Shown: in pieces, positions 1 through 13,034 of the stretch
Layout: every line of letters starts with the position of its first letter
How positions within the stretch are numbered: position 1 is the stretch's first letter
From: a virus
Lineage: Duplodnaviria; Heunggongvirae; Uroviricota; Caudoviricetes
DNA: 13,034 bases
IMG/VR virus record: IMGVR_UViG_2654587571_000008
Coordinates: 1 to 13,034 of that record
Strand: one strand, 5' to 3'
Made by a program: the position numbers and the translations under genes
Notes under the pieces: model-generated
What the model saw: the letters and a program-made list of their open reading frames with translations, nothing else
What the model was told of the DNA's origin: nothing
Database searches by the model: none

Positions 1-68
1 GGTGGCGGCGGCACAGTTGGTGTGGCGGCCTCAGTCCGGAACAATTTGAAAACCAGAACCTCGCTTAG
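1..68 (+). CDS. IS3-family transposase (OrfB) C-terminal fragment; 5' end outside window
   Basis: Codons 3..65 translate to WRRHSWCGGLSPEQFENQNLA followed by TAG at 66..68. From memory this matches the conserved C-terminus of IS3-type OrfB transposases. Confidence 0.7.
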   Translation, partial: WRRHSWCGGLSPEQFENQNLA

Positions 69-98
69 GCCTGTGTCCATATTACGTGGGTAGGATCA
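1..98 (+). mobile_element. Terminal ~98 bp of an IS3-family insertion sequence (right end, including transposase 3' end); body lies outside the window to the left
   Basis: Positions 4..98 are the exact reverse complement of 12940..13034. The element ends ...GGATCA at 98, matching the TGA...TCA termini typical of IS3-family elements (recalled). The transposase reading frame ends inside it. Confidence 0.75.
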
Positions 99-557
99 GA
101 GTTAGTTGTTATACTCAATCAAATCAGCACACTAACTGCTTTAAGTGAGCATCCAAAACTCGGTATCGGCGCTGTTGACATATCACTTTATAACCAGTCG
201 ATATTAACGTCTGAACATAATGGCAATGTTGCAACCATCGAGATAAAACACCATTATCCAAAGGATTTACTTTATCGGCAAGTTCAAGAAGACATCATTT
301 CCGATATTTCAAGAGTAATAGTTTCACCAACTACACACTTTATCCATATAATCCAGCAAAGAACCAAGATTAAAACTCCTTCTTTTGGTCAAGTGAAATT
401 CCTTGAACGTGATGCAAGTGATATCAGCACTTATGTGCAATGTCTTGAGGAGCTAAGTTCATTTCCCAGTAATTTTCATAAAAAAAGTGTATGTATTGAG
501 GTACTTGGTGAAATTATGTCGACATATACCTTTAACGTATATTCATTTGACAACTGA
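99..557 (+). pseudogene. 5'-truncated ORF of unknown function, cut by the IS end; AT-rich, in the bor-like position convergent with Rz1
   Basis: One frame is open from 69 to the TGA at 555..557 (162 codons) in very AT-rich DNA. The first in-frame ATG/GTG is at 393/516 with no Shine-Dalgarno, and the frame runs straight into the IS end at 98/99. Absent from the supplied ORF track because it has no start codon. Confidence 0.4.
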
Positions 558-578
558 TTAATTTGACAATTTTATTGC

Positions 579-836
579 TTAATGGTTAGTTCTCTCTGCA
601 TCTATTTTACGAATATCAGCTTTATCCCGATTGCAGTTAGCCAGCGCAGACAACAGACTCACATTCAGCTCCAGACTGGCACCATACGTCAGCGGATTAG
701 GTATAAACGGTACAGGAGTATCAGAAGTCAGGCTGGGTGGCAGTGGTGCCACCGGAACGCTCACGTAAACTGTCCGCGTACTTCCGCAACCGGTCAGCAG
801 CGGCAGCAGGCACAGCACGTGAAGCACAATCATCAT
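579..836 (-). CDS. Rz1: Rz1-like outer-membrane spanin lipoprotein (o-spanin), overlapping and extending beyond Rz
   Basis: Alternative frame inside the Rz gene. Begins MMIVLHVLCLLPLLTGC (signal peptide plus LLTGC lipobox) followed by a proline-rich region (VPVAPLPPSLTSDTPVPFIPNP). Confidence 0.55.
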   Translation of the reverse strand: MMIVLHVLCLLPLLTGCGSTRTVYVSVPVAPLPPSLTSDTPVPFIPNPLTYGASLELNVSLLSALANCNRDKADIRKIDAERTNH

Positions 837-1113
837 CCGCAACAGCCATTTTGATATCTTCCTGGGTTCTCTGTGACTCCAGTGCGATCTGCTGTTTTGC
901 ATGCTGGTTAGCCTCCAGTACTGTATTGACGATTTGCAGTGATTGCAGGACGTTATTGGTAATGGCAGTTGCCGATTTGGCATTTTGTACAGCCTCATCA
1001 GCACGTTTCTTTTCGTGCTGATATTTGCTGTAGTAGTGATTCGCTGACCAGATGAAAGAGCCAATAACAGTAAAGAAGAAAGCAGAGATAGTCAGCTTAT
1101 AACTCAACTTCAT
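721..1113 (-). CDS. Rz: Rz-like inner-membrane spanin (i-spanin)
   Basis: 130 aa with an N-terminal transmembrane anchor (LTISAFFFTVIGSFIW) and a charged, coiled-coil-like periplasmic domain. Lies immediately downstream of the endolysin and overlaps its 3' end. Confidence 0.7.
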   Translation of the reverse strand: MKLSYKLTISAFFFTVIGSFIWSANHYYSKYQHEKKRADEAVQNAKSATAITNNVLQSLQIVNTVLEANQHAKQQIALESQRTQEDIKMAVADDDCASRAVPAAAADRLRKYADSLRERSGGTTATQPDF

Positions 1114-1573
1114 TTACCACCCCACCAGCCTCTTTAAATCGGGCAATCAGGTCACCGATTTTATGTTCATACTGACCGTAACCTGCACCGGGTAATGAAG
1201 CCCATATATTGCTGCAACGGTCGATTGCCTGACGAATATCGCCGCTATCAATCATAGGTAAAGCGCCACGCTCTTTAATCTGCTGCAATGCCACTGCGTC
1301 CTGGCTTTTGGGGGAGAAGTCTTTCAAACCAAGCTGTTTACGGTAAGCATCCCACCAACGGGAAAGAAGCTGGTAACGTCCGGCGGCTGTTGATTTGAGT
1401 TTGGAGTTTAGCTTGACAAGTTTGCGAGGGTGATCGGAGTAATCAGTGAACAGTTCGCCACCAACAATAACATCATAACCGTGGTTACGTGTCGGTTGTC
1501 GCCCGTTATCCGTTCCTTCTGACCATGCCACCATATCAAGGAAAGCTTTACGCTGGGAATTTAGTACCTGCAT
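1097..1573 (-). CDS. Endolysin, lambda R-type (lytic transglycosylase, phage lysozyme family)
   Basis: 158 aa. N-terminus QRKAFLDMVAWSEGTDNGRQPTRNHGYDVIVGG and the rest match the recalled lambda R sequence almost residue for residue. Confidence 0.9.
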   Translation of the reverse strand: MQVLNSQRKAFLDMVAWSEGTDNGRQPTRNHGYDVIVGGELFTDYSDHPRKLVKLNSKLKSTAAGRYQLLSRWWDAYRKQLGLKDFSPKSQDAVALQQIKERGALPMIDSGDIRQAIDRCSNIWASLPGAGYGQYEHKIGDLIARFKEAGGVVNEVEL

Positions 1574-1576
1574 AAA

Positions 1577-1912
1577 TTACTCCTTAGAGCCACCAAACTT
1601 GTTACCGATTACTCGCATTGCAGCCCCACGAATAGCATCGACACCGATCAGCCCCACGCCACCACCAATGGCAACAGAAAGCGATTTAGGCCATCCGACA
1701 TACTCAAGAGCGGATGCAAAGGTCAGCGTCAGAGCGCCACAGAGCAAAATCTCGAGCGTTTTTCGCTTCCAGCCACCACCACCGCCAAAATAGGCGATGC
1801 GCAAACCAGCCATAACGATCGACATAATCACTGCACCCAGCGGTGTGTCTCCACGCCACCAGCTCTGAAACAACTCCAGCCAGTCCGGCCAGGTATTTGG
1901 GTTATGAGGCAT
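1577..1912 (-). CDS. Holin, lambda S-like (three predicted transmembrane segments)
   Basis: Start chosen at the internal ATG (1912..1910), preceded by GAGGTGAGAG. Three hydrophobic segments and a charged C-terminus, with AGLRIAYFGGGGG and LIGVDAIRGAAMRVI resembling lambda S. Stop is 3 nt before the endolysin start. Confidence 0.6.
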   Translation of the reverse strand: MPHNPNTWPDWLELFQSWWRGDTPLGAVIMSIVMAGLRIAYFGGGGGWKRKTLEILLCGALTLTFASALEYVGWPKSLSVAIGGGVGLIGVDAIRGAAMRVIGNKFGGSKE

Positions 1913-1955
1913 TTCGTCATCTCTCACCTCGCGATATTTGCGGGTGCTGTGTTGG

Positions 1956-1981
1956 AAATAAAAAGGCCACGCAACGTGGCC
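1956..1981 (-). terminator. Intrinsic terminator between the methyltransferase gene and the lysis cassette
   Basis: Perfect 7-bp GC-rich stem GGCCACG/CGTGGCC (1965..1971 and 1975..1981) with a 3-nt loop, followed on the minus-strand RNA by UUUUUAUUU. Confidence 0.6.
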
Positions 1982-1988
1982 ACCAGAA

Positions 1989-3044
1989 TTATTTCCCCAC
2001 CACCAGTTCACTTACCTCTTTCACCGTCTGATTAAACCGCTCTGTCTCAAGCTCAACACCTAACGCCCGACGCCCCAGCGCCATTGCTGCTTTTATTGTG
2101 GAACCGGATCCCATAAAGAAATCAGCAACCAGATCGCCGGGTCGACTACTGGCATTGATTATTTGCCTGAGCATATCCGCCGGTTTCTCACACGGATGTT
2201 TACCCGGGTAGAACTGAACGGGTTTATGCATCCAGACATCGGTATAAGGCACGGAGACTGATACGGAGAAATAGCGCCGGAGAGATTTAAACTCATCCAG
2301 CAATTCAGAATATTTGCGATTCAGTGAATCATAAGATGCCACCAACTGGTGGTGTGGTTGTTCCAGTTGTTGTTCCTGAAACTTCTCTGCCGCTATACGG
2401 GAAAACAGTGCCTGTAACTTCCGGTAGTCAGCCTCATTCGGCAACTGCCACTGACTGGCACCAAACCAGTGGGAAACCATATTTTTCTTACCTGTGGCTT
2501 CGGCAATTTGTTTTGCCGTTATACCCAGTTCGGCACGAGCATCCCTGAAATACGATATCAGCGGTGCCATTATGTGCTGTTTGAGTTCCCTTTCTTTTGC
2601 CGCATAGCCGTCACTTTTGCCGCGATATGGCCCCTGGTAATGTTCAGCAAACAGAACGCGCTCTGTGGCAGGAAAATATGCGCGCAGACTTTCTTTATTA
2701 CACCCATTCCAACGTCCGGACGGCTTCGCCCAGATGATATGGTTAAGCACGTTGAAACGTTCACGCATCATGATCTCAATATCAGATGCCAGGCGATGCC
2801 CACAGAACAGGTAAAGGCTTCCGGCAGGTTTCAACACCCGCCAGAACTGGGCCAGACAGTGGTCCAGCCACTTAAGGTAATCTTCGTCCCCTTTCCACTG
2901 ATTGTCCCAACCGTTGGGTTTCACCTTGAAGTACGGCGGATCGGTAACAATCAGGTCAATGGAATCATCAGGCAGGGACTGAATAAAATGCAGGCAATCA
3001 GCGTTGATTAAATCAACACTGTTTGTTTTTACAGTATTTTTCAT
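1989..3044 (-). CDS. DNA methyltransferase, N6/N4 family (beta-class, orphan)
   Basis: 351 aa with N-terminal motif IV (IVTDPPYF) and C-terminal motif I (DFFMGSGST). No adjacent restriction endonuclease. Confidence 0.85.
   Translation of the reverse strand: MKNTVKTNSVDLINADCLHFIQSLPDDSIDLIVTDPPYFKVKPNGWDNQWKGDEDYLKWLDHCLAQFWRVLKPAGSLYLFCGHRLASDIEIMMRERFNVLNHIIWAKPSGRWNGCNKESLRAYFPATERVLFAEHYQGPYRGKSDGYAAKERELKQHIMAPLISYFRDARAELGITAKQIAEATGKKNMVSHWFGASQWQLPNEADYRKLQALFSRIAAEKFQEQQLEQPHHQLVASYDSLNRKYSELLDEFKSLRRYFSVSVSVPYTDVWMHKPVQFYPGKHPCEKPADMLRQIINASSRPGDLVADFFMGSGSTIKAAMALGRRALGVELETERFNQTVKEVSELVVGK
3017..3036. promoter_or_regulatory. SOS-box-like palindrome (CTGT-N8-ACAG) overlapping codons 3-9 of the methyltransferase
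   Basis: cACTGTttgtttttACAGTA read directly; compare the recalled LexA consensus TACTGTATATATATACAGTA. It is the only CTGT-N8-ACAG site I found in the window. Confidence 0.3.
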
Positions 3045-3193
3045 GGATCAGTAAGCGTAACTCTGGTAGGCTCACTCTGCTTTTGCGCTAAAGCAGTGGG
3101 CCATGGTTCGCTTGTGACCAGTAAGCATGAGCGAATGGCTGGCAGGTGCTACCAACACCCACCAGCCGCCCATTTTCACAAATTAAAAGCCCT

Positions 3194-3388
3194 TCATTGC
3201 TGAAGGCGTCTGTAACAGCCGAACTGGTAATCTGCCAGCCCCGCCATAACCAGCTGGGTCAGTATTAACTGACAGCGTTCGCGTGAAAGGTATGTGTTTT
3301 GTGCAATCTCCCCGACTGTTGCCGGTTCGATGCTTAATTCATTAAAAACAACTTTCGCCGTTTCTGTCATATCTTGCTGTTTTAGCAT
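3194..3388 (-). CDS. Small (64 aa) putative winged-helix/HTH protein
   Basis: Start placed at the ATG at 3388 with AAGGGA about 8 nt upstream (the track ORF begins at 3412). ATVGEIAQNTYLSRERCQLILTQLVMAG looks like a helix-turn-helix. Confidence 0.4.
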   Translation of the reverse strand: MLKQQDMTETAKVVFNELSIEPATVGEIAQNTYLSRERCQLILTQLVMAGLADYQFGCYRRLQQ

Positions 3389-3509
3389 GTCTTTTTCCCT
3401 TCTGGTTAACATGACATACCAATAACTCTTGTCTAAAAAGCCAGCAAGATAAACAGTCAGTATTCACGACCACCAGCGTGTTTACCGTACTGCACCAATG
3501 TTTAATTTA

Positions 3510-3532
3510 TAAAAAAACCGCGAGAACGCGGT
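3510..3532 (-). terminator. Intrinsic terminator downstream of the 176-aa cargo gene
   Basis: 6-bp stem ACCGCG/CGCGGT (3517..3522 and 3527..3532) with a 4-nt loop. The plus-strand A7 run (3510..3516) gives a U7 tract after the hairpin on the minus-strand RNA. Confidence 0.6.
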
Positions 3533-3569
3533 AAGTATTGTTAAAAAACCAACAGTAATTTCACTCAAC

Positions 3570-4100
3570 TTATTTAATACATTCTTTTGCTTGCGCATAA
3601 TAAATTTTATGAGTATTAGCAAGCTTAACGAAGTTATACTTAACTGCCCCTAACAGGGTTCCAACTCTTGTATGCCCTTCCATTAAATGGAGCCCTGTTG
3701 TATTACTTTTCAGCAAAGCTCGATCTATAAAAAATGGTGGTTCGCACCATGTGCCAAAATTACACCAATGCGCTTTTATTTCATCATCCATAAATACATC
3801 ACCTTTACGGGTCATGTAATCTTCAACGACCTCATGCAAAAAATCAGGGCAAGTAGCATTATCCCCGATAGTTAAAAAGTTTTTAGTGGGAAGTTCAATC
3901 AATTTCCATTCAATTTGGTCAATATCAAGATCCCCATAAAGCTTCTGAAATCTGTCATCACCTACCAATCCATAATAAATCTCCTGAATTACAGGAGAGG
4001 GGGCAATGATAGAATATTGCTCACGAAGTATTCTTTCAGCCTCAGGAGCTTCAAATATGGTTCTTTCTGAGAAAATAGGCAGAAGATCTCGGTATAACAT
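3570..4100 (-). CDS. Hypothetical protein (176 aa), AT-rich cargo gene between Q and the lysis genes
   Basis: Long ORF in locally AT-rich DNA, with a GGGGAT Shine-Dalgarno upstream of the ATG and a strong terminator downstream. No family recognised. Confidence 0.5.
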   Translation of the reverse strand: MLYRDLLPIFSERTIFEAPEAERILREQYSIIAPSPVIQEIYYGLVGDDRFQKLYGDLDIDQIEWKLIELPTKNFLTIGDNATCPDFLHEVVEDYMTRKGDVFMDDEIKAHWCNFGTWCEPPFFIDRALLKSNTTGLHLMEGHTRVGTLLGAVKYNFVKLANTHKIYYAQAKECIK

Positions 4101-4132
4101 CCATATCCCCGTGTAAGAAAAAATAATTTAAC

Positions 4133-4152
4133 CCGCTCGGCTGCGGTTTTTT
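4133..4152. terminator. Short GC hairpin with flanking A and T tracts (candidate tR-prime, possibly bidirectional)
   Basis: CCGC tcggct GCGG followed by TTTTTT on the plus strand and preceded by an A-rich run. On the minus strand it sits about 40-55 nt downstream of the predicted late promoter. Confidence 0.35.
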
Positions 4153-4194
4153 GGACTTATCAACGGTAGACACACAAAGCCCATCGTTGAGAAA

Positions 4195-4223
4195 ATCTTA
4201 TCCATGTTTTTTGAAAAATGCAA
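4195..4223 (-). promoter_or_regulatory. Candidate late promoter (PR-prime-like) immediately downstream of the Q gene
   Basis: Minus strand reads TTGCAT, 17-nt spacer, TAAGAT (complement of 4218..4223 and 4195..4200), in the 154-bp gap between Q and the first late gene. Confidence 0.35.
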
Positions 4224-4254
4224 GCATCATGTCGCTATCTTTGTTGAAAATCAT

Positions 4255-5007
4255 TTATCTTGTCACTTTTCTCAATTGCGCTTCAGCATATGCTTCTTCC
4301 TGCCAGCACTTTGTAACCAGTTTATCAATGACGTCTGCATATCCTTTGTACCACTGATAATCCGTCAGGTCTGTTACCAGATTCTGGACATGACGTCGTG
4401 CCAGTGTGGTTGGTAAACGGCTAAATCGGTTTCCATTGCAACGCCCACAAATCTTATAAACAGGCGTGCCATGAAGCCGGGTTCTTTTTTCATCCAGGAC
4501 AATACCTTTACCCTTACATCCTCTGCACGCTGTGCTGACTTCTCCCTTACCATGACAATGCTGACATAGTTCCTTCACCCACTCTTCCTTGATAACAGAT
4601 TCCCCGTTTCTGGAGTGTTTCACCACTTCGCGCAATACATTATGAAATCCAGTACCAGCACAATGCTCACAGCGAGCCTTACTTGCCGCAGATCTGGAAT
4701 AATCAGCAAAGGCAAAATTCACAAGGTAAGGAATGATCTGTAGCCGGGTTTCTTCACTCAATTTGTTCAATGTCGGGTTATCCAGTGCCATCGCGTAATT
4801 GAGCAGACCTTCAATCGCAAACTGAGGATCCTGAACACCAACTTTTGCCAGGAATAAGGCAAAACCCAGTGGTGCTTTCGACTGCACCATCCCCTGCGCA
4901 GCCATCACATCTGTAATTGTTAAACCACCCGAGCCTGTCGCCGGTGCGTCATCACTCAATTTTGGAGATTTTGGGGAGTAATATTTTGGTAAGGCTTCAA
5001 GGTTCAT
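4255..5007 (-). CDS. Q-like late antiterminator with four CxxCxGxG zinc-finger motifs
   Basis: 250 aa with CEHCAGTG, CQHCHGKG, CRGCKGKG and CGRCNGNR. Sits directly upstream of the late promoter/terminator region. Good GGAGAA Shine-Dalgarno. Length agrees with the long Q-like proteins of E. coli prophages (recalled). Confidence 0.55.
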   Translation of the reverse strand: MNLEALPKYYSPKSPKLSDDAPATGSGGLTITDVMAAQGMVQSKAPLGFALFLAKVGVQDPQFAIEGLLNYAMALDNPTLNKLSEETRLQIIPYLVNFAFADYSRSAASKARCEHCAGTGFHNVLREVVKHSRNGESVIKEEWVKELCQHCHGKGEVSTACRGCKGKGIVLDEKRTRLHGTPVYKICGRCNGNRFSRLPTTLARRHVQNLVTDLTDYQWYKGYADVIDKLVTKCWQEEAYAEAQLRKVTR

Positions 5008-5020
5008 GCTCGTTCTCCAC

Positions 5021-6016
5021 TTACGCCAGTACGCCTATTGCCAGCGCACGATCGATAAAACGAAATATCAGCTCCAACTGGGAGCCATACATCTCTTCAA
5101 ATGCCACGGTATCCGCATGCAGCTCGTCGTGATGCTTTCTGCACAAAGGCAACACAAAGAGGTCATGCGCTTTTGTACCCATTCCCCCCTGACCGTGGCC
5201 TATCAGGTGGTGGGGATCATCAGCAAGCTTTCCACAACATGCACACGGCTGTGTCTTAACCCAGCGCGTGTACTTTTCATTAACCCAGCGGCGACGTTTT
5301 GGGCGTAACATAAAAGACTCCGGCGACTCCGGATCCACTTTCAGCGCCAGCACCTTTTTCGCTTTATCCTGGATAATGCTGGTGGCAGGAACCGAAGGCA
5401 CAAGGTCACTTTCCCGGGTGACAGACGGCACAACAGGCTTCGGTAATCTCAGTGCCTTACGGGCTGCACTTTCCGGTAAGGCATCCGCCAGGTCATTACG
5501 AATCAGCCACCAGCACAGTTCCGGCATTGTCACAACGTGACTGTCATCAAAACCGAGATCCCGACGCACAACAGACAACACCCAACGGGCACAGTTATCC
5601 GTTGCCATTGATTCCAGCCGTTCCGTGAACTGATCGCGCAGCTGGTTATCGCAGTGCCAGCAGAGACGGATTGCGCCCGGAGCGTGCCGCATTGTGGTCA
5701 TGTTCTCGCTGTGCCAGTCGGAATGAGGCCACTGGCAGCCTTTTTCACGAAGTAACCAGCTTTCAAGACATTCCACCCCACCAGCACGACGGATCACTGC
5801 CTCATTGCGGAACACGGCCCGAACGGCAGGATCATCCGCCAGCGGTTGTGATGCCGCGGGAACGGCACCACTGGCGAAAGATGAATAACGTTCCGGCTCA
5901 GGCTCCAGCAGGACACGCCCCTGCATAAACAGGGGCATCAGCTCTGAACCGGGCCTGAACAATACGATCCCCATACGCGGGGCAATTTCAGGGGTCAGTA
6001 GTGCTCTCACAGTCAC
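5021..6016 (-). CDS. DUF968-like prophage protein with a C-terminal Cys/His cluster (HNH-like)
   Basis: 331 aa. C-terminus PCACCGK...DPHH...GGMGTKAHDL...PLCRKHHDELH. Nin-region position between KilA-N and Q. Family assignment is from memory. Confidence 0.5.
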   Translation of the reverse strand: MTVRALLTPEIAPRMGIVLFRPGSELMPLFMQGRVLLEPEPERYSSFASGAVPAASQPLADDPAVRAVFRNEAVIRRAGGVECLESWLLREKGCQWPHSDWHSENMTTMRHAPGAIRLCWHCDNQLRDQFTERLESMATDNCARWVLSVVRRDLGFDDSHVVTMPELCWWLIRNDLADALPESAARKALRLPKPVVPSVTRESDLVPSVPATSIIQDKAKKVLALKVDPESPESFMLRPKRRRWVNEKYTRWVKTQPCACCGKLADDPHHLIGHGQGGMGTKAHDLFVLPLCRKHHDELHADTVAFEEMYGSQLELIFRFIDRALAIGVLA

Positions 6017-6017
6017 C

Positions 6018-6827
6018 TCAATGAACGGTATCGAGCAACTTTAACAGCTCGGGGAATCGGGATTCGAAGAAATGCGGCTGCGTCTCGCGCGGATTTGCGG
6101 GACTGGTGATGTTCTTGCCGAACATGCAGCCTTTCGCTGTCAGCGACCAGAATTTTTTGATGTTGTTAATCGCGGTACGGCTGTATCGTTCGCGCTGCTC
6201 GACGATCCCCAGCTTCACCATCTGGTGATATGCCTGATTAGCTGTCAGGCGGATACCATACTGCTTCAGCAGTGCACTCAGTGACAGCGTGGGGCGGCTT
6301 GAGCCATCAGGCGCGTCAGCAGGAGCATCAATGGCATAGCGCGGTGCCAGATTCGGTAAGCCAACAGCCTCCTGGAGTTTCTGACAGGCACCAAGCACTG
6401 AAGAGTTAGACAGGTTTAATTCCCGGCGCATAAAGTCCAGCAGAATCACACCAGCCTGCATCTTGTCAGCAGCCTGTCCGGATAATTTTTCCGGTGCGCT
6501 GGTTACCATATCGAAAGTACGGATCACCTTCAGATGGAATGACGGGCTGATCCACATTGCATAGGCATACACCAGTTCCTTGCAGACATACGTTCCCCGT
6601 TCATTTCCCCCATGAATCACACTCACCGGGTCAACACCCAAATTCTGAGTGTTGGTCAATTCATGAACAAGCTCAACAGTTTGTTGGCTGGAAAGAAACT
6701 TTCCTGGCTCCTTGGTTCTGGCATTTGCACCAGATGCTACTGCTGCGCGATGCAGATCGTTCAGACTGTAACGCCCATAAGCATCACGACGAACTTCAAT
6801 ACCATCAATGACCATCAGATTATTCAT
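6018..6827 (-). CDS. KilA-N domain protein (antirepressor-like)
   Basis: N-terminal ~100 aa (VIDGIEVRRDAYGRYSLNDLHRAA...GTYVCKELVYAYAMWISPSFHLKVIRTF) fits the KilA-N/APSES pattern. GAGGAG Shine-Dalgarno. Confidence 0.65.
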   Translation of the reverse strand: MNNLMVIDGIEVRRDAYGRYSLNDLHRAAVASGANARTKEPGKFLSSQQTVELVHELTNTQNLGVDPVSVIHGGNERGTYVCKELVYAYAMWISPSFHLKVIRTFDMVTSAPEKLSGQAADKMQAGVILLDFMRRELNLSNSSVLGACQKLQEAVGLPNLAPRYAIDAPADAPDGSSRPTLSLSALLKQYGIRLTANQAYHQMVKLGIVEQRERYSRTAINNIKKFWSLTAKGCMFGKNITSPANPRETQPHFFESRFPELLKLLDTVH

Positions 6828-6846
6828 ACTTCGTTTCTCCTCTTAA

Positions 6847-7236
6847 TCAGGCGGCTGCACCCGCCGTTTTCTCGTACTTACTTATAGTGATCTCGACCTT
6901 CCCTTCCGGGATAACCGGTCCCCACTCCACCAGCATTCTTTTCACCTGACTGTCGTCTTCCCACACACCCGCGTGGGTCAGGGCGTCAAACAGCGCCTTG
7001 TTATAGTTGTCCAGATCGCGGATCCGGTTATCCGGAGGAAACAACACGATCTCCACTGAAGCAGGTGCCGACGTTGGTTTTGGCAGACGACGTAACTGCT
7101 CAACTATTGCTGCACACGCCGCGCTCTGGAATTTGCGCCCCGCCGCGCTTATCAGGCTCTTACCTGCAAACGCCCCTTTGTTGGGGTGTCGCCAGTACGT
7201 GTTCACGCTGGGCGGAAAAGGCAGTATTAGCTTCAT
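6847..7236 (-). CDS. rusA: RusA Holliday-junction resolvase
   Basis: 129 aa. LPFPPSVNTYWRH and RDLDNYNKALFDALTHAGVWEDDSQV match the RusA signature, including the catalytic Asp cluster. Confidence 0.85.
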   Translation of the reverse strand: MKLILPFPPSVNTYWRHPNKGAFAGKSLISAAGRKFQSAACAAIVEQLRRLPKPTSAPASVEIVLFPPDNRIRDLDNYNKALFDALTHAGVWEDDSQVKRMLVEWGPVIPEGKVEITISKYEKTAGAAA

Positions 7237-7559
7237 ACTTTCAGGCCCCTCTCATGTAACCAGTGGGCTGCACGCAGCCTGGCGTTTGCCTCACCGGCAA
7301 GCAGTGCGCGGATAATCCCGACCGCCTCGCTGTCGTCGTCCTTCATCGCGGTATGAAGCGTTATCCCCCGGGCCACGCCACGCTTTATCGTGATGACGCC
7401 TTTTTTCTCCAGTGCTCGAAGATGCTCCACCGCTGCATTCACTGAACGGTATCCCAGCATGGTTGCCACCTCCTGATTGGTTGGCGGGAAGCCACGTTCT
7501 TTCTGGTAAGAAATCAGCATATCCAGCACCTGCTGCTGGCATTGAGTTAACGTCGTCAT
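7233..7559 (-). CDS. Standalone LexA N-terminal DNA-binding-domain homolog (no S24 peptidase domain)
   Basis: Residues 1-70 (LTQCQQQVLDMLISYQKERGFPPTNQEVATMLGYRSVNAAVEHLRALEKKGVITIKRGVARGITL) align with the recalled LexA N-terminus, followed by an unrelated 38-aa tail. ATGA overlaps with both neighbouring genes. Confidence 0.7.
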   Translation of the reverse strand: MTTLTQCQQQVLDMLISYQKERGFPPTNQEVATMLGYRSVNAAVEHLRALEKKGVITIKRGVARGITLHTAMKDDDSEAVGIIRALLAGEANARLRAAHWLHERGLKV

Positions 7560-8209
7560 GCAGCCATCTCCCTGACCAGTTTTTCCGCCTGCTGGCGAAC
7601 CTGCGCCAGAAAGGCCTCACCACATGCCTCAAGTTCATCGCGCCCGATGTAGCTGATTGCCGGTCCCTTCCAGGTCTTGTCGAAAACAGCAATAGCACCA
7701 GCGAAGAAAGCGCCTGTCGGCACCTGCTTCTCATCCTTCGGGATAAACCAGGCAGGCAGTTCAAAACCAATACGCCCGCGAATAAAAGCAATATGATCTG
7801 CATCTTCCGGCCACCACACTTCGCTGGTGGCAGCTTTGATCAGGAAAACATAGCGACCGCCTTTATCACGCATGGCACTGGCATGCTTCATGATGTAACG
7901 CATGCCGGTGATGTATTGCCCCTCATGCTGACTGGCGCGGCTGTATGGGGGATTACCAAAGGCAGCACCTTTAAGCTCCGCAAGACGTTCTGACCAGTCA
8001 TGTGCCAGCGCGTTGTCTTCCGCCGTGTAATACGCGGCACATTTGGCGTTATCACCGTCAGTGAACAGATCCAGAACAAACGGACCAAACAGGGTGTTAA
8101 TTCCCCAGAAAATGTTATCCGGCGTGCGCCACTGATCGCCCACTTCCTTCAGTTCATGGGCTGGTTTGTTCCGCAGCTCCACCAGCGCCCGGCAATATTT
8201 ATTACTCAT
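7556..8209 (-). CDS. Phage Dam-type N6-adenine DNA methyltransferase (orphan)
   Basis: FGNPPYS catalytic motif. Start placed at the ATG at 8209, which overlaps the upstream stop as TAATG (the track ORF extends to 8242). Confidence 0.75.
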   Translation of the reverse strand: MSNKYCRALVELRNKPAHELKEVGDQWRTPDNIFWGINTLFGPFVLDLFTDGDNAKCAAYYTAEDNALAHDWSERLAELKGAAFGNPPYSRASQHEGQYITGMRYIMKHASAMRDKGGRYVFLIKAATSEVWWPEDADHIAFIRGRIGFELPAWFIPKDEKQVPTGAFFAGAIAVFDKTWKGPAISYIGRDELEACGEAFLAQVRQQAEKLVREMAA

Positions 8210-8697
8210 TAAGCCCCCACGTAATTCCCTGACAGATACCACTCTTCACCTGATGCAGCCCGCTTGTTGCTTTTCCGTAAACACCGTTCACGACGCGCCA
8301 GAAAATTATTTCGTTCTGGCTGGGAGTGGCTTTCACGGAATGCCGCCATCCACACCGTTGCAGCACGACGGTATAAGCCCCTGGACTCCAGTTCTTCAGC
8401 CTGGCGGGTCAGGCACAAAATCACCCGGGGGTCGTTAGTGCCGACATAGAAATTGCGCACAGGTCTGGTTTCACGAACTGGTTGTGGTTCCGGCTCCTGC
8501 GCTCTCTCAGTCAGGCGCGGGAAATGTCTGCGTGTATCCCCTTCACAACGGTGAGCCACACGCCCACTCTGACGTAACTTGCTTGCTGACTGCAGAACGC
8601 GCTGCCGTGAGTAACCAGCAAAAGCATCTGCAATGTCTCCGGAAGTACACCCCGGATGAGCTTCAATGAATTTCTGAACGTCATTTAACAGACTCAT
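8209..8697 (-). CDS. Putative PerC/ANR-family-like transcriptional regulator with an N-terminal winged-helix-like region
   Basis: C-terminal ESRGLYRRAATVWMAAFRE...RRERCLRK resembles the GLWRRAA..W motif of PerC-type regulators (from memory). Start could be ATG 8697 or GTG 8703. Confidence 0.4.
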   Translation of the reverse strand: MSLLNDVQKFIEAHPGCTSGDIADAFAGYSRQRVLQSASKLRQSGRVAHRCEGDTRRHFPRLTERAQEPEPQPVRETRPVRNFYVGTNDPRVILCLTRQAEELESRGLYRRAATVWMAAFRESHSQPERNNFLARRERCLRKSNKRAASGEEWYLSGNYVGA

Positions 8698-8699
8698 GA

Positions 8700-9641
8700 T
8701 CACCCCCTGAATCCTGCCGGGATCTGGCTGTAGTCCACGTTGTCGTAACTGGATTTGAAGTACGGGTCTTCGCGTTTTTCGGTGTACGTGCTGACGGACG
8801 GCGATAAGCGCAGGGAAAGCTCATCCCATTTTTCCCGCAGCTTCGACGGGCTGAGCACGTTACGGCACCAGAACGGATCGCGGCTGACGCGGCTGTACAT
8901 CTCGCAGATTTGTTTGTGAGTACGACTATCCTGCACACACATCAGGCGAATTTCGTTTGCCCAGGCTGTCCAGTTCGGTTCTTTGGGACGAACCACCTCG
9001 CCGTCACATTCGGCGGCCTGCTCGTACAGGGCGATGATTTTTTTCCAGAGCCACTGTGCACAGGTCAAATCATCCTGCGTTCCCCACTGGCGCTTTTTAG
9101 GGCTGAATACAACCGCATCAGGATGGCGAGTTAAAAACTCCTGTTCAGCCGTCTGCGTGTCCGGTTGCGAAGCGTCCGGACGAGAAGTTTTTTTATCTGA
9201 CGGATCATGTTTTGATTTTACTGACGGATCCCCGCCAGATTCTGACGGGTGAAAACCCGCTTTTTTGCCAGATTTCGACGCATCAAATTTTGACGGGTCA
9301 GATTTTGATGCGTCAGATTTTGACGGGTCAGAATCTGACAGTTGAGAAAATGCCGCTGCCTGAAGCTTCGCAACGTTAAGCTGATAAACATTCGACGCAT
9401 TGCGGTTACCCTGGCGACGCGCCTTACGCGTTAACCAGCCTTCTGCTTCCAGCCGTGCGATAGCCGTTCTGACGGTACTCATCCCCGCGCCAATCTGACG
9501 GGCAATGGTTTCAATTGATGGCCAGCACACACCTTCGTCATTACTGAAATCAGCCAGGCGGGCCATAATTGCCACACTGGATAACTTCATGCCTGATGCA
9601 GCGCAACCATCCCATACATAGCCGGTTAATTTAGTGCTCAT
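8700..9641 (-). CDS. Replication initiator, lambda O-like organisation (N-terminal wHTH, origin iterons inside the gene)
   Basis: 313 aa. N-terminal HTH-like region (WPSIETIARQIGAGMSTVRTAIARLEAEGW). The central low-complexity DPSKSDASKSDPSKFDASKS is encoded by tandem DNA repeats. Confidence 0.65.
   Translation of the reverse strand: MSTKLTGYVWDGCAASGMKLSSVAIMARLADFSNDEGVCWPSIETIARQIGAGMSTVRTAIARLEAEGWLTRKARRQGNRNASNVYQLNVAKLQAAAFSQLSDSDPSKSDASKSDPSKFDASKSGKKAGFHPSESGGDPSVKSKHDPSDKKTSRPDASQPDTQTAEQEFLTRHPDAVVFSPKKRQWGTQDDLTCAQWLWKKIIALYEQAAECDGEVVRPKEPNWTAWANEIRLMCVQDSRTHKQICEMYSRVSRDPFWCRNVLSPSKLREKWDELSLRLSPSVSTYTEKREDPYFKSSYDNVDYSQIPAGFRG
9195..9345. repeat. Iteron array (candidate replication origin) within the initiator gene
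   Basis: Eight or more copies of a TYTGACGG-type unit, including near-perfect 15-bp tandem repeats (gattttgacgggtca / gattttgatgcgtca / gattttgacgggtca at 9301..9345), plus a nearby A/T-rich stretch. Confidence 0.55.
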
Positions 9642-9650
9642 GACCGACCT

Positions 9651-9989
9651 CTATTTCCCTGAATTTACGACGAAACTGTTCGAGCGGACTGAAGCATTCA
9701 TGCTCATAACCTTCGCGGAGGTAGATAACCCGTTGTGTTTCCGGCTCCCAACGAATGACTCTGACGGGCACTCCGTAGTGATCTTTGAACCAGCGGTTAA
9801 CTTGTCGCAAAGGACTGTCTCCTTCTGCCGGTTGAAATCACCCACAGCCCACTCTGCAAAGCTGTGGGTTACAATTTCCCTGTCACCTGGTACATTCACT
9901 GCATAGCAATATTCCACCTTCGCTTTTCCACCCGGTACAGGAAGCGCAATCAGTTGCGAGCGACGGTAGTGTGTTGTTAAACTGTTCAT
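9651..9989 (-). CDS. Hypothetical protein (112 aa) between the CII-like and initiator genes
   Basis: ATGA overlap with the upstream CII-like gene and AGAGG upstream of the following gene. No family recognised. An overlapping plus-strand ORF (9634..9906) makes the strand assignment uncertain. Confidence 0.35.
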
Positions 9990-10543
9990 GCGTTAGTTTC
10001 TCCACAACCAGAAGCAATCGACGCCACGACGCCCGGAGCTGCACACTCGCGGGCGTCATTACTTTCTGAAATGCAAAAGATTTTGTAGACCAGTGCTGCA
10101 TGCTCCTGCAGCTTCGAAATTGAGAGATACAGCTCGTCGTTAATTGCTGTCTTCTCATGCGGTTCCACTACACCGTCTTCGATTGCTGAACGAATCTGTT
10201 TTGAATAACTGCCGATCTGTTCAATGACTTCCAGCAGACGCTGGTTAATATCGGCGTTGTCCACATCCTCGACGTCAGGAAGAGACACAAATACGCCATT
10301 TGCAGACTGCGCCACAGCATCAGCAATGAAGTGAGTGCCACCAGCACGCTGTAAAACCATTGCCCATCCCAGCGGAAAAATCTGATCGCCATCTGCACGA
10401 AGGCGGTTGAATAAAGCGTTCTCTGTTACATCCAGCCAGTCAGCGGCTTCAGCGTAACCACCCGGCAACGCCGCGATAGTTTTTCTGACAGCTTTCACGT
10501 ACCACTCAGGCTGTTTTTCTATTTTCCAGTGATGCTTACCCAC
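9986..10543 (-). CDS. CII-like phage regulatory protein (185 aa)
   Basis: Start placed at GTG 10543, with AAGGAG 6 nt upstream (the track ORF begins at 10648 and would overlap cro). [16 protein letters not shown] resembles CII-type regulators (from memory). Confidence 0.45.
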
Positions 10544-10565
10544 GGCTATCTCCTTAAAACTGTGG

Positions 10566-10814
10566 TTACTTTTCATCTGATGAATCTTTAATCTTTTGAA
10601 AAATATCTGGACGTAATTTTTCTTTTGATATGCCAGTGGTCTTTTCAATGAATATCGAGAGCTTTGCAGGGGGACGCTTTTCTCTGTTCAACCAGTTCCA
10701 GACATGTTGTTGCTTTACTAAATGACCGCTGCTGGCTGTGAGCTTCCGAGCCAATTCTGATTGACCACCAGCCAGAGCGATTGCCTCCGATAAGGCTAAT
10801 TGCTCAGGTGTCAT
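10566..10814 (-). CDS. Cro-like HTH repressor
   Basis: 82 aa with an HTH (QSELARKLTASSGHL). Divergent from the cI-like gene across an operator-rich intergenic region. GGAG Shine-Dalgarno. Confidence 0.7.
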   Translation of the reverse strand: MTPEQLALSEAIALAGGQSELARKLTASSGHLVKQQHVWNWLNREKRPPAKLSIFIEKTTGISKEKLRPDIFQKIKDSSDEK

Positions 10815-10949
10815 AGCTTTCTCCTTTTTTGGTAGTTAAGTTGTTACGAGTTGCAAGAATACAACATTAACAACTTTTATCACAACTTTTAGGTGTTGGA
10901 AAGCTAAAACATAAAGTTGTAACCTCATCAAAAAAGAGAGGGATATGTT
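10815..10949. promoter_or_regulatory. Right operator/promoter region between cro-like and cI-like genes
   Basis: Contains five copies of AAGTTGT/ACAACTT (at about 10838, 10861, 10870, 10882 and 10914) and AGGTGTT. The same sequence blocks recur at 12560..12620. Confidence 0.5.
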
Positions 10950-11636
10950 GTGAAAACACTGGCAGAACGATTAAAGATAGGTAGAGAGAAAGCTGGCATG
11001 AGCCAAGCTCAACTAGCTGAAAAAATTGGACTTTCACAACAATCTGTAGCCAAAATAGAGAATGGCGAAACTCTACAACCGCGCAAAATTAAAGAAATTG
11101 CAAAAGTTTTAGGTGTATCACAAAAGTGGTTACAACTTGGTATTGAAGATAACGCATCCATACCTGATCTTGTTGTAAAAGAAGCAGAAAGCACCGCATT
11201 AGACCCCGATATTTTCGTAAACATTCCTGTTTTAGATGTCGAGTTATCGGCAGGTAACGGATGTCTGGCTGAAATAGTTGAATCAGCTATTGACTGGTTT
11301 CCGTTAAGAAGAGCAGATTTGAGAAAATCTGGCGTATGTGCATCTAATGCCAAGATCGTAAAAATATGGGGGAACAGTTTATTACCGGTTCTCAATAATG
11401 GAGATCTTGTTGCCGTTGATATTTCTCAAACCGTTCCTATTCGTGATGGCGATCTTTATGCCGTACGAGATGGTGTATTGCTAAGGGTTAAAATACTTAT
11501 CAACTTACCTGACGGTGGCTTGATTCTTAGAAGCTTCAACAAAGATGAGTACCCAGATGAAATACTCACCTTTGAAGATAGACGAGCCAGAATTCATGTT
11601 ATAGGTAGGGTATTCTGGTCATCGCGAACTTGGTAA
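10950..11636 (+). CDS. CI/LexA-type prophage repressor (HTH plus S24 peptidase, autocleavable)
   Basis: GTG start with AGAGAGGGA upstream. N-terminal HTH (MSQAQLAEKIGLSQQSVAKIENGE), an Ala-Gly cleavage site (LSAGNG), catalytic Ser (WGNSLLP) and Lys (LLRVKIL). Confidence 0.85.
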   Translation: MKTLAERLKIGREKAGMSQAQLAEKIGLSQQSVAKIENGETLQPRKIKEIAKVLGVSQKWLQLGIEDNASIPDLVVKEAESTALDPDIFVNIPVLDVELSAGNGCLAEIVESAIDWFPLRRADLRKSGVCASNAKIVKIWGNSLLPVLNNGDLVAVDISQTVPIRDGDLYAVRDGVLLRVKILINLPDGGLILRSFNKDEYPDEILTFEDRRARIHVIGRVFWSSRTW

Positions 11637-12509
11637 TGCATCGAAAAGCATTTCTTCAGAAATAATTTTAAGTTTTGCACCATTATCATCCCTATAAGAT
11701 ATAGCTTTTTCGATCTTCCTTCCGTGACTTGAGAATTTCCAATCACGGGAGGAAAGCGTCCCAATTACTAAAAAATCCAACTTTTGAGTAATTCCACTAC
11801 TGATGTTCCCACCAGCATTTTTAATCAAATTTTCAACTACGGCTCTCTTTCCTGCAACAAAAGTGCCTGTAAGACAATAGGTTTTACCCTCTAACTCTAT
11901 CGAAGCCCCTACATCAATAGGCAGCCTGGTCGCCAAACCATCCACCACCCCACTTTCCAAGTCACATCCTGTGAAGTCTACTAATGCCTTATGTAGAGTT
12001 AAACTCTCATCTTCAGTAATAACCCCATCTTTAAGAATTTCCTTTACAAGTGCATAAAGTTTTTTTCCTGGGTAGTTGTTCTTCAAAGCTCCATTTTGCT
12101 CAAGCCACCAATTAAGATATCTTATTTCTTCTTGAGTTAAGTTCCGATCAGCAATTAATCCTTTACATAGTCCATTAAGTAAATGGACATCTACATCCTT
12201 GGAGTAAAAATCAATTTCAGGGATATCAAGAATTTCCCTCTGTATTTGGAGAAGGCTATTTTTAAGGTCATCACGTTCTTCTGATGTGATTATTCCATCC
12301 GCAAGAATATCCGACACCCGTGCTGATAGACTTTTTATAACTCCATTATTGATAATCTGCTTTGCTTCAAGTAACCATGTATCTAAGTAAAGAACCTCCT
12401 CTTCACGGACAACTCCATCTGCAATGATTCCATCAATGATGCTAATCAAGTTAGCAAATAACTTGTCCCGGTTCTGTGTGTAATTAAAAGCGTAAAGCGC
12501 GTCTTCCAT
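11619..12509 (-). CDS. Uncharacterised protein with four N-terminal DG-x-I-T-x-EE repeats (TerB-like?) and a C-terminal BRCT-like domain; candidate superinfection-exclusion/defence gene
   Basis: Start placed at ATG 12509, with AGGAGG 5 nt upstream. C-terminus GKTYCLTGTFVAGKRAVVENLIKNAGGNISSGITQKLDFLVIGTL...AKLKIISEEMLFDAL follows the BRCT pattern of NAD-ligase C-termini. The 3' end overlaps the cI-like gene by 18 bp. Confidence 0.6.
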   Translation of the reverse strand: MEDALYAFNYTQNRDKLFANLISIIDGIIADGVVREEEVLYLDTWLLEAKQIINNGVIKSLSARVSDILADGIITSEERDDLKNSLLQIQREILDIPEIDFYSKDVDVHLLNGLCKGLIADRNLTQEEIRYLNWWLEQNGALKNNYPGKKLYALVKEILKDGVITEDESLTLHKALVDFTGCDLESGVVDGLATRLPIDVGASIELEGKTYCLTGTFVAGKRAVVENLIKNAGGNISSGITQKLDFLVIGTLSSRDWKFSSHGRKIEKAISYRDDNGAKLKIISEEMLFDALPSSR

Positions 12510-12559
12510 ACAACCTCCTTTTTTTGATAATCCTTGCACTCCTTGGCTACTCGTTCAAA

Positions 12560-12625
12560 CCACATAAAGTTGTTGACAACATTCAAAACCACAACTAAAT
12601 TACAACTTAAAGGTGTTAAAACAAC
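12560..12625 (+). promoter_or_regulatory. Left operator/promoter region with a PL-like rightward promoter
   Basis: Consensus -35 TTGACA (12573..12578), 17-nt spacer, -10 TAAATT (12596..12601). An imperfect dyad AAGTTGT-TG-ACAACAT (12567..12582) overlaps the -35. Operator motifs are shared with the right operator region. Confidence 0.5.
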
Positions 12626-12697
12626 GAACAGGCAGGACGCCCACGAAGTAGCCGCCTGGGGCATATGAAGTCCAGGATGATTCGTTAGCAACAAAAA

Positions 12698-12729
12698 AGC
12701 GCCCTACAGGACGCTTAGCTCTTTAACAA
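12698..12729 (+). promoter_or_regulatory. Candidate antitermination (nut-like) site: boxB-like hairpin followed by an rrn-type BoxA
   Basis: Hairpin AGCGCCC-uaca-GGACGCU (12698..12715, one mismatch), then GCTCTTTAACAA (12718..12729), identical to the recalled core of the E. coli rrn BoxA. It lies in the leader between the promoter and the first gene. Confidence 0.45.
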
Positions 12730-12774
12730 TCTGGTCCCCATCAACAAGTAACTGATAACTTGAGGAGGTGTGAA

Positions 12775-12942
12775 ATGCACAAAACAGAACCAAAAATCGT
12801 CGCACCCGGATACACAAATGAGGAAATTTACGAGTGGATGGCAAAGAAGCTGGCAGCTATAAACCAGCTTCGTGAAGTGCTGTCTTATCGACAGGAAACA
12901 ATAGACTCCTTAAAAAAACTGGATCAGGAAATCACGGTTTGA
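12775..12942 (+). CDS. Small ORF (55 codons) of unknown function, probably 3'-truncated by the IS; stop codon supplied by the IS terminus
   Basis: Strong AGGAGG Shine-Dalgarno 6 nt upstream of the ATG. The TGA at 12940..12942 is the first three bases of the IS end. Confidence 0.45.
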   Translation: MHKTEPKIVAPGYTNEEIYEWMAKKLAAINQLREVLSYRQETIDSLKKLDQEITV

Positions 12943-13034
12943 TCCTACCCACGTAATATGGACACAGGCCTAAGCGAGGTTCTGGTTTTCAAATTGTTCC
13001 GGACTGAGGCCGCCACACCAACTGTGCCGCCGCC
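12940..13034 (-). mobile_element. Terminal 95 bp of a second, inverted IS3-family copy; body lies outside the window to the right
   Basis: Exact reverse complement of 4..98. The window ends inside the element. Confidence 0.75.
12970..13034 (-). CDS. IS3-family transposase (OrfB) C-terminal fragment; 5' end outside window
   Basis: Mirror image of 1..68, with the stop codon TAG at 12972..12970 on the minus strand. Confidence 0.7.
   Translation of the reverse strand, partial: RRHSWCGGLSPEQFENQNLA

Follow-up and report, generated by a model that had tools for sequence, protein, structure and literature searches.

An rrn-type BoxA beside a putative convergent-gene terminator in the early-left leader of an N-less lambdoid prophage

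Lambdoid phages have two known solutions to early antitermination, the N protein together with nut sites and the put RNA of HK022. For the N-less enterobacterial prophages, which include SfV, SfII, SfIV, ST64B, phiNP, e14, and their relatives, we know of no antitermination mechanism that has been assigned; this group is large, and some of its members are serotype-converting. Here, we describe the leftward early leader of one such prophage, contained in positions 1 to 13,034 of the IMG/VR virus record IMGVR_UViG_2654587571_000008 (the window, i.e., the whole 13,034-nt stretch that was analyzed), with a focus on a hairpin and an adjoining BoxA at 12693-12734 and on a structured leader RNA that precedes them at 12621-12690. 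It matches E. coli PS1Thumoskin9 at 100% and is an e14-like lambdoid prophage that has integrated at the icd gene of this strain.

The immunity region holds a cI-type repressor gene (10950-11636, plus strand) and cro (10566-10814, minus strand), which is the first gene of a long operon that continues through ymfL, beginning ~20 nt after cro, to replication genes, a Q-type antiterminator, and lysis genes. Past a BRCT-domain gene next to cI, a promoter-like site, a 170-nt leader, a small plus-strand open reading frame (ORF), and the end of an IS3 element follow in that order. The promoter, a sigma-70-like TTGACA-17-TAAATT at 12573-12601 (plus strand; 10 of 12 matches in a promoter scan), is surrounded at 12554-12616 by three operator-like repeats, D1-D3 (ACATAAAGTTGT; ACAACATT.AAAC;.ACAACTT.AGGTGT), and because these repeats match the cro/cI intergenic region (10861-10920), the site is best taken as the repressor-controlled early-left promoter, the equivalent of PL. 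The first early-left ORF (12775-12942, plus strand, ATG at 12775) is 55 aa long here and 68 aa when intact, its C-terminus having been replaced through the IS3 insertion that occupies the last ~90 bases of the window (12943-13034) and interrupts the early-left operon; its product has no arginine-rich motif, no Pfam match, and no known family. The uninterrupted arrangement is seen in IS-free relatives, namely the locus L010 and the phage SfIV, which is 98% identical across the leader: directly after the small ORF comes a convergent 144-aa ECs1072-family gene, displaced here by IS3, and then yfdP, yfdQ, yfdR ... xis, and int on the plus strand. When the early-left operon was checked in an IS-free relative, it contained no N-like protein by Pfam match or by arginine-rich N-terminus or motif, and the genome paper of SfIV reports no N, cII, or cIII (PMC3851460).

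Within the leader, the BoxA core GCTCTTTAACAA occupies 12718-12729 on the plus strand, and T12730 extends the match to a 13-mer, GCTCTTTAACAAT (12718-12730), that agrees at every position with the rrn BoxA 13-mer of E. coli; scored as an rrn-type BoxA (GCUCUUUAACAAU), the site has an extended phage consensus, GCTCTTTAACAATCTGG, that reaches 12734. Direct reading of the rrnB leader in E. coli K-12 gives GCCGC-TGAGAAAAAGCGAA-GCGGC-ACT-GCTCTTTAACAATTTATCAG, with an identical BoxA, and the rrnG BoxA oligo of binding studies ('CACugcucuuuaacaauuua') carries the same BoxA, the lambda boxA being given there as 'cgcucuua' (PMC2724277). Positions 12718-12730 fit the functional BoxA consensus GYTCTTTAANA (PMC5725501), and the transcribed strand agrees with both UGCUCUUUAACAA and GYTCTTTAANA; the lambda boxA is CGCUCUUA, whereas the form found here is that of rrn (CUUUA). 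The window has a single copy of the 13-mer, and no copy arose in 200 dinucleotide-preserving shuffles, while the looser consensus matches once in the window and at least once in 14 of the 200 shuffles. Allowing up to two mismatches brings in just two further BoxA-like sites in the window, both distant, and even at this tolerance the cro-side operon has no BoxA, nor does it have a copy of the leader RNA. The BoxA match is real and is not a product of chance. It lies in the sense orientation ~110 nt 3′ of the PL promoter, a leader position that rests on a predicted promoter, and 45 nt from the ATG of the small ORF. A preliminary description made from the letters of the window had read 12718-12729 as an exact rrn BoxA and not the lambda form, had placed it in the leftward early leader ahead of a small first gene that is not arginine-rich and does not look like N, had seen no equivalent site after cro, and had allowed that the match might be no better than background for AT-rich phage DNA; the comparisons with rrnB, rrnG, and the consensus, the operator-flanked promoter, and the protein searches uphold the first three of these observations along with the absence of a cro-side site, and the shuffles place the match above background.

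Directly upstream of the BoxA are an A-run (12693-12698) and a hairpin that spans 12697-12716 on the plus strand as AAGCGCC-CUACA-GGACGCUU, contains either a C.A mismatch or a bulged A, and ends 1 base 5′ of the BoxA. In rrn operons, the antitermination leader consists of a boxB hairpin, BoxA, and boxC and is served by a complex of NusA, NusB, NusE, NusG, SuhB, and S4. The boxB stem of rrnB ends 3 bases before its BoxA, and since it likewise sits just 5′ of BoxA, the sequence of hairpin followed by BoxA is the rrn order and not the order of a lambda nut site, as had been suggested previously. The resemblance to rrn leaders comprises an identical BoxA 13-mer, a GC hairpin ending 1-3 nt 5′ of it as in the rrnB P2 leader, and a function for which no phage protein would be required; unlike rrn leaders, the present one shows no boxC-like element, another structured RNA precedes its BoxA, which is ~110 nt away from the transcript start, its hairpin has an adjoining A-run and is adapted to the opposite strand, and its cargo is an mRNA operon rather than rRNA.

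Read on the minus strand, 12693-12716 is a predicted intrinsic terminator, AAGCGUCC-UGUA-GGGCGCUU followed by UUUUUUGUU, to which a terminator scan assigned eight pairs, five of them GC, and a T-run. It is the top-scoring intrinsic terminator in the region, of textbook form, and has both the AAGCGTCCTGTAGGGCGCTT stem and the TTTTGTTGCT U-run; on the plus strand, six to eight A's precede the stem and its tail, UAGCUCUUUAAC, is a poor U-run. The minus-strand fold has eight contiguous pairs and an energy of -11.5 kcal/mol, versus -7.5 kcal/mol for the plus strand, the minus-strand stem being more stable because the plus-strand C.A mismatch turns into a U-G pair. We used this strand bias to judge the hairpin, since the stem is near-invariant and the loop alone varies, leaving no covariation to score. 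The first sizeable ORF (≥100 aa) is convergent and ends ≤300 nt away in 12 of 14 distinct loci with an A-run hairpin and a BoxA, compared with 10 of 23 BoxA-adjacent hairpins that have no A-run and 7 of 48 loci that have no hairpin, and in several loci the convergent ORF ends 14-19 nt from the BoxA. The gene directly before the terminator on the minus strand is an ECs1072-family gene in L010 and orf36 in SfIV, while IS3 intervenes here; overall, the convergent genes found behind one terminator block belong to at least three unrelated families.

With the A-run, the strand-biased fold, and the convergent ORFs taken together, the hairpin at 12697-12716 is better read as chiefly an intrinsic terminator for a convergent gene on the minus strand, and the stem would then be a common terminator of interchangeable convergent accessory genes. 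It resembles 'moron' terminators in being a GC stem and T-run right after a convergent accessory gene inside an early operon, and it differs from them in that three unrelated families of genes use the one block, which has a sense BoxA fused to it. By analogy with rrn boxB, the hairpin may also aid BoxA. The preliminary description was therefore right that a hairpin stands directly 5′ of the BoxA, but its label 'boxB-like' finds no clear support in the sense of a boxB analogue and would apply at most in a secondary way, given the same terminator anatomy and convergent genes. Its interpretation, which also suggested that the operon may recruit the host NusB/NusE complex without an N protein, is about half right, with the BoxA part supported and the boxB part not. 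One stem shared by two strands, as the terminator of a convergent gene and as a hairpin beside BoxA, would be a compact example of such an arrangement.

The convergent families consist of ECs1072-like proteins, coiled-coil proteins with CxxC pairs, and ~155-aa proteins with predicted membrane helices, the last of which recall superinfection-exclusion proteins. Past the hairpin-BoxA block, these families occur in L010 (10354-10788); in L003, L205, and L230; and in L079, L088, L094, L131, and L156.

The recurrence of BoxA was examined in loci fetched by a 22-nt core of the leader RNA, blind to BoxA, from viral contigs and from one genome per species. GYTCTTTAANA was present in the sense orientation within ~300 nt downstream in 20 of 114 viral loci and 16 of 84 genome loci, for a total of 36 sense occurrences in related leaders, with 0 antisense and 0 in the 300 nt upstream; ~0.05 would be expected per ~90-locus set. 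The BoxA-bearing leaders contain at least six unrelated linkers, five of which have no A-run hairpin, and at one Xenorhabdus locus the BoxA begins 5 nt past the leader RNA. These comparative data support a sense-strand function of BoxA.

A broader scan of viral contigs with the 14-mer GCTCTTTAACAATC gave 96 distinct contexts among the matches listed, to which the counts that follow also refer, and their features were compared with those of a reversed-sequence, composition-matched control 14-mer. A strong hairpin ended ≤4 nt upstream in 33 of 95 14-mer contexts versus 4 of 93 control contexts (Fisher P = 8e-8), an excess that may partly reflect GC content (0.50 versus 0.39), and these hairpins were highly diverse in sequence. 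Non-coding sites made up 64 of 95 contexts for the 14-mer and 31 of 93 for the control, 29 of 96 phage contexts had TGG directly behind the 14-mer, and several sites lay directly behind promoter-like sequences. The hairpin, non-coding, and promoter contexts show that a sense BoxA, often with a 5′ hairpin, recurs in the leaders of temperate phages.

These observations bear on an account in which the BoxA match has no function in RNA and belongs either to a 3′ untranslated region (UTR) or terminator module of the convergent gene or to a recombination linker between lambdoid modules, which we regard as improbable. The minus-strand order of stop codon, BoxA complement, hairpin, and T-run, with the stop 14-19 nt from BoxA in several loci, would suit such a module, a sharp mosaic boundary falls at the hairpin-BoxA-TCTGG block, and the hairpin-BoxA subfamily offers little variation in which selection could be assessed. 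Yet BoxA follows the leader RNA in five other contexts that have neither hairpin nor A-run and does so always in the sense orientation, in other phages it stands immediately behind promoters and behind many unrelated hairpins, and an exact 13-mer identity to rrn would be unexpected in a linker.

Two further arrangements were seen among the BoxA-bearing phages. In L192 (2406-2419, minus strand, versus 4896-4967, plus strand) and likewise in L217, the leader RNA is on one side of the immunity region and a hairpin-BoxA, CGAGC-CGGTATA-GCTCG-CAT-GCTCTTTAACAATCC, is in the divergent operon upstream of a helix-turn-helix (Cro/CII-like) gene, so BoxA may be able to serve a rightward operon too. In L180, L191, L228, L174, L204, and L195, a lambda-boxB-like hairpin, CACC-ACACUGAAA-GGUG, lies ~35 nt upstream of BoxA, an order opposite to that of the lambda nut site, and the first ORFs are not arginine-rich.

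Our preferred reading, to which we assign a probability of roughly 0.55, is that 12693-12734 is a two-strand composite, a terminator on the minus strand and an N-independent, Nus-loading BoxA on the plus strand that shields early-left transcription from Rho, placed where the early-left operon opens in an N-less lambdoid prophage of the SfIV/e14-like kind. We infer that termination would actually take place on the minus strand, where the A-run and GC hairpin would serve as the factor-independent terminator of a convergent accessory ('moron') gene and would bar the convergent transcript from PL, its operators, and the immunity region. On the plus strand, the nascent PL RNA would expose the rrn-type BoxA immediately 3′ of the stem, NusB and NusE (S10) would bind it, and NusA, NusG, and SuhB would join to produce an RNA polymerase that is Rho-resistant without N, on the model of rrn operons and CRISPR arrays. 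This would let early-left transcription pass through an untranslated antisense stretch to the distal yfdP/Q/R ... xis and int. In L010, the plus-strand stretch from the stop of the small ORF to the next plus-strand ORF is ~550 nt long and would be untranslated because it is antisense to the convergent gene, and it holds a C-rich, G-poor window (C/G 1.7-2.3); protection against Rho has a rationale here because the PL transcript must pass this stretch and its C-rich window. The exactness of the BoxA makes it testable whether these phages borrow the host's rRNA- and CRISPR-type Nus complex without a phage protein.

N-independent function of BoxA is established for rrn, CRISPR arrays, and suhB (PMC2724277, PMC7665894, PMC5725501). 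The rrn BoxA with short flanks is enough against Rho-dependent terminators, rrn boxB and boxC being dispensable (PMC2724277); BoxA shields untranslated CRISPR arrays from Rho (PMC7665894); and Nus factors instead act at suhB as repressors of translation that promote Rho termination (PMC5725501). The stand-alone BoxAs of Salmonella and Vibrio CRISPR leaders and of the suhB 5′ UTR share with the present one a perfect GYTCTTTAANA, the absence of N, and no need of boxB, and the predicted job here, to shield untranslated RNA from Rho, is that of the CRISPR BoxA; the difference is that here the site is in a prophage early operon, a class that is not discussed in PMC7665894 or PMC5725501. In the Baniulyte supplementary list of BoxAs, phage-associated matches are only sporadic, and our literature search returned no account of an rrn-type BoxA in N-less lambdoid phages, nor of the ymfJ/e14 leader RNA. 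A stand-alone function of BoxA is therefore already known, and its N-less lambdoid early-left setting appears to be new.

The suhB precedent also supplies an alternative, in which Nus factors at BoxA would repress the small ORF and promote Rho termination, damping early-left expression. A distance of <50 nt to the start codon has served as the criterion in searches for putative regulatory BoxAs, and the 45 nt found here fits such a suhB-type search; repression of suhB persists when BoxA and the Shine-Dalgarno sequence are as much as 100 nt apart, and lambda N/nutL also represses translation of N (PMC5725501). Elsewhere, however, the BoxA block precedes unrelated sequence, often a convergent gene with no nearby co-directional ORF, and since the downstream sequences are unrelated across loci, a link between BoxA and the ribosome-binding site of one ORF is not conserved. 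Damping would moreover leave the distal int and xis no route through the untranslated antisense stretch. We consider damping of this kind unlikely, and less likely than Nus-mediated Rho resistance.

Several observations weigh against the reading of 12693-12734 as a Rho-protective composite. Only ~18% of leader-RNA loci carry a BoxA, so that BoxA would be dispensable in this phage type. The block of the hairpin-BoxA subfamily is near-identical, and its conservation could partly represent recent horizontal spread or a recombination junction. The BoxA is unpaired in the local fold, and in the minimum-free-energy fold of the whole leader part of it pairs with 12611-12620, a result that is non-significant (z = 0.31) and involves a partner that is not conserved in SfIV. 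No boxC-like, GU-rich element was seen 3′ of BoxA, and the 45-nt gap to the ATG is of the kind that at suhB goes with translation repression and Rho termination (PMC5725501). Finally, IS3 breaks the operon, and the element may consequently no longer matter in this particular prophage.

A lambda-type nut site working with an unrecognized N-like protein is another way to read the BoxA, with the hairpin CAAGU-N8-ACUUG at 12745-12762 (plus strand) as boxB. As in lambda, P22, and 21, the site would be in an early-left leader, and the same host factors would be expected at BoxA. Among the loci that share the 14-mer, a few (L136, L153, and L210) continue with arginine-rich N-like ORFs, and most do not. 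The present operon, unlike those of the nut phages, encodes no arginine-rich or N-family protein, its hairpin is upstream with no 3′ boxB, and the site is single, with no second one after cro. The hairpin at 12745-12762 is also unlike lambda boxB: it is a weak AU-rich stem with an 8-nt loop and a 15-nt spacer, it folds at -7.3 kcal/mol, indistinguishable from shuffles, it overlaps the Shine-Dalgarno sequence GAGGAGG (12762-12768) of the small ORF, and it is found only where this small ORF is also present. We judge a nut site to be very improbable.

The most conserved and dominant element of the leader, by sequence comparison, is one that the preliminary description does not mention. A leader RNA of 65-70 nt with three helices lies at 12621-12690 on the plus strand, 7 nt upstream of the hairpin. 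P1 (12623-12628/12681-12686) closes the RNA; P2 (12631-12633/12639-12641) is GGC-AGGAC-GCC, with the loop AGGAC; and P3 (12655-12659/12672-12676) has the conserved loop GGCAUAYGAA. The core AGGCAGGACGCCCACGAAGUAGCC is invariant, as is an AUGA between P3 and P1, with the limit that the invariance of the 22-nt core partly follows from fetching the loci by that core. In an alignment of 36 sequences, 96% of cells are paired and 10 of 14 pairs vary on both sides, and the covariation score of 0.657 compares with 0.18 in shuffles (0 of 500 as high) and ≤0.13 in slid controls; RNAalifold concurs. Of 90 loci in the independent genome set, 85 pair P1 (21 arm combinations) and 83 pair P3 (24), P2 is backed by the variant GGC-AAGGAAA-GCC, and occasional G-U pairs point to the plus strand. 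A covariance model, R1, scores 91.8 bits at 12621-12690 and, with filters off, finds one copy per locus. The 22-nt core is present in at least 120 viral contigs and in 92 genome stretches across Enterobacterales, and in the loci examined the leader RNA is always ~10-25 nt past the early-left promoter and beside a cI-type repressor. Rfam had nothing over the window at gathering thresholds and nothing meaningful over 12540-13034 at E values up to 10, where the best matches were terminator-like hits of small RNA or leader models on the minus strand.

The leader RNA is also found in the e14 element of E. coli K-12, between ymfK and ymfJ (L237 6109-6179, minus strand, 74 bits with R1; approximately NC_000913.3 1,202,108-1,202,178, minus strand); RefSeq annotates no RNA there, and e14 has no BoxA. 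A second conserved leader module, GCGCAGCAGGTTTAAACGTTCCGC-YRGCC-RGCG-WTAMAGGCA, was seen in L003 (~2960-3000), L008 (~3080-3130), L009, L094, L164, and L205; its short hairpin shows the compensatory changes CGCTGGCCAGCG, CGCCAGCCTGGCG, and CGCCGGCCGGCG. In some phages, this module separates the leader RNA from the hairpin-BoxA block, and in others it substitutes for the leader RNA. An octamer, CAGGACGC, occurs twice in the leader, at 12633-12640 (P2 loop and 3′ arm) and at 12708-12715 (the loop-stem junction of the BoxA-adjacent hairpin), and GGACGC is kept in nearly all variants of the latter hairpin, by chance or as a possible common protein-binding motif.

The put RNAs of HK022 and HK639 are cis-acting antiterminators that bind the beta′ zinc-binding domain of RNA polymerase. 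It is possible, and we put this forward only tentatively, that the leader RNA at 12621-12690 is itself a processive antiterminator acting in cis like HK022 put, with BoxA as an optional accessory or irrelevant. In all loci examined, the RNA begins ~10-25 nt past the PL start, just where HK022 has its putL; like put and unlike the hairpin and BoxA, it is a ~65-70-nt structured RNA at the PL start of N-less lambdoid phages. It covaries strongly, it is found in phages reported or annotated as having no N, the AGGAC/AGGAA loop of its P2 is similar to the apical loop of stem II in put (AGGAU/AGGAA), and Escherichia, Xenorhabdus, Yersinia, and Pectobacterium all have the 22-nt core in identical form, an identity across genera that suggests a conserved host target. 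The leaders of HK022 and HK639, unlike the present one, have no BoxA. Against a put-like RNA stand the absence of any similarity in sequence or model to HK022/HK639 put, a topology of a closing stem with two hairpins where put has two tandem stems, and a single copy per phage with none on the cro side, put comprising putL and putR. Sense intrinsic terminators within 1 kb downstream were detected in 8 of 92 loci by a strict perfect-stem finder, which misses bulged stems. A put-like role is plausible from position and the N-less context, and it is compatible with a function of BoxA.

Homology to HK022 put was pursued and rejected. A BLAST search with lax scoring gave only chance strings of 10-17 nt, a putL query returned the HK022/HK75/O276/HK639/phiEt88 family and none of the leader-RNA loci, and R1 had no match at the HK022 locus, which holds putL and should hold putR. 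The strings CGAAC and CAGGAUGA, common to put and the leader RNA, were judged a coincidence because both sit in variable stems of the leader-RNA family.

The leader RNA is widespread, covarying, and unannotated, which makes it a candidate second family of antiterminator RNAs and a more novel possibility than BoxA. The two elements could be joined in a wider conjecture, which we offer as doubtful but worth stating: N-less phages of the SfV/SfIV/ST64B/e14 type might run early-left antitermination from a protein-free cassette, in which a new class of cis-acting RNA (12621-12690) would modify RNA polymerase or block Rho, put-like in action, and in about one-fifth of the phages an rrn-type BoxA would add Nus-dependent Rho resistance wherever a convergent gene leaves the transcript untranslated.

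Two further features were noted. The gene between cI and PL, which reads towards cI (11619-12509, minus strand, 296 aa), encodes a BRCT domain at its C-terminal end (Pfam E = 1.3e-6), contains internal DNA repeats, and, being absent from the equivalent position in SfIV and SfV, is probably an accessory or defense gene. A second copy of IS3, inverted, lies just past the left end of the window (L011; IS3 coordinates listed 1-469 / 13371-14533), and the windowed prophage segment is therefore flanked by two IS3 copies.

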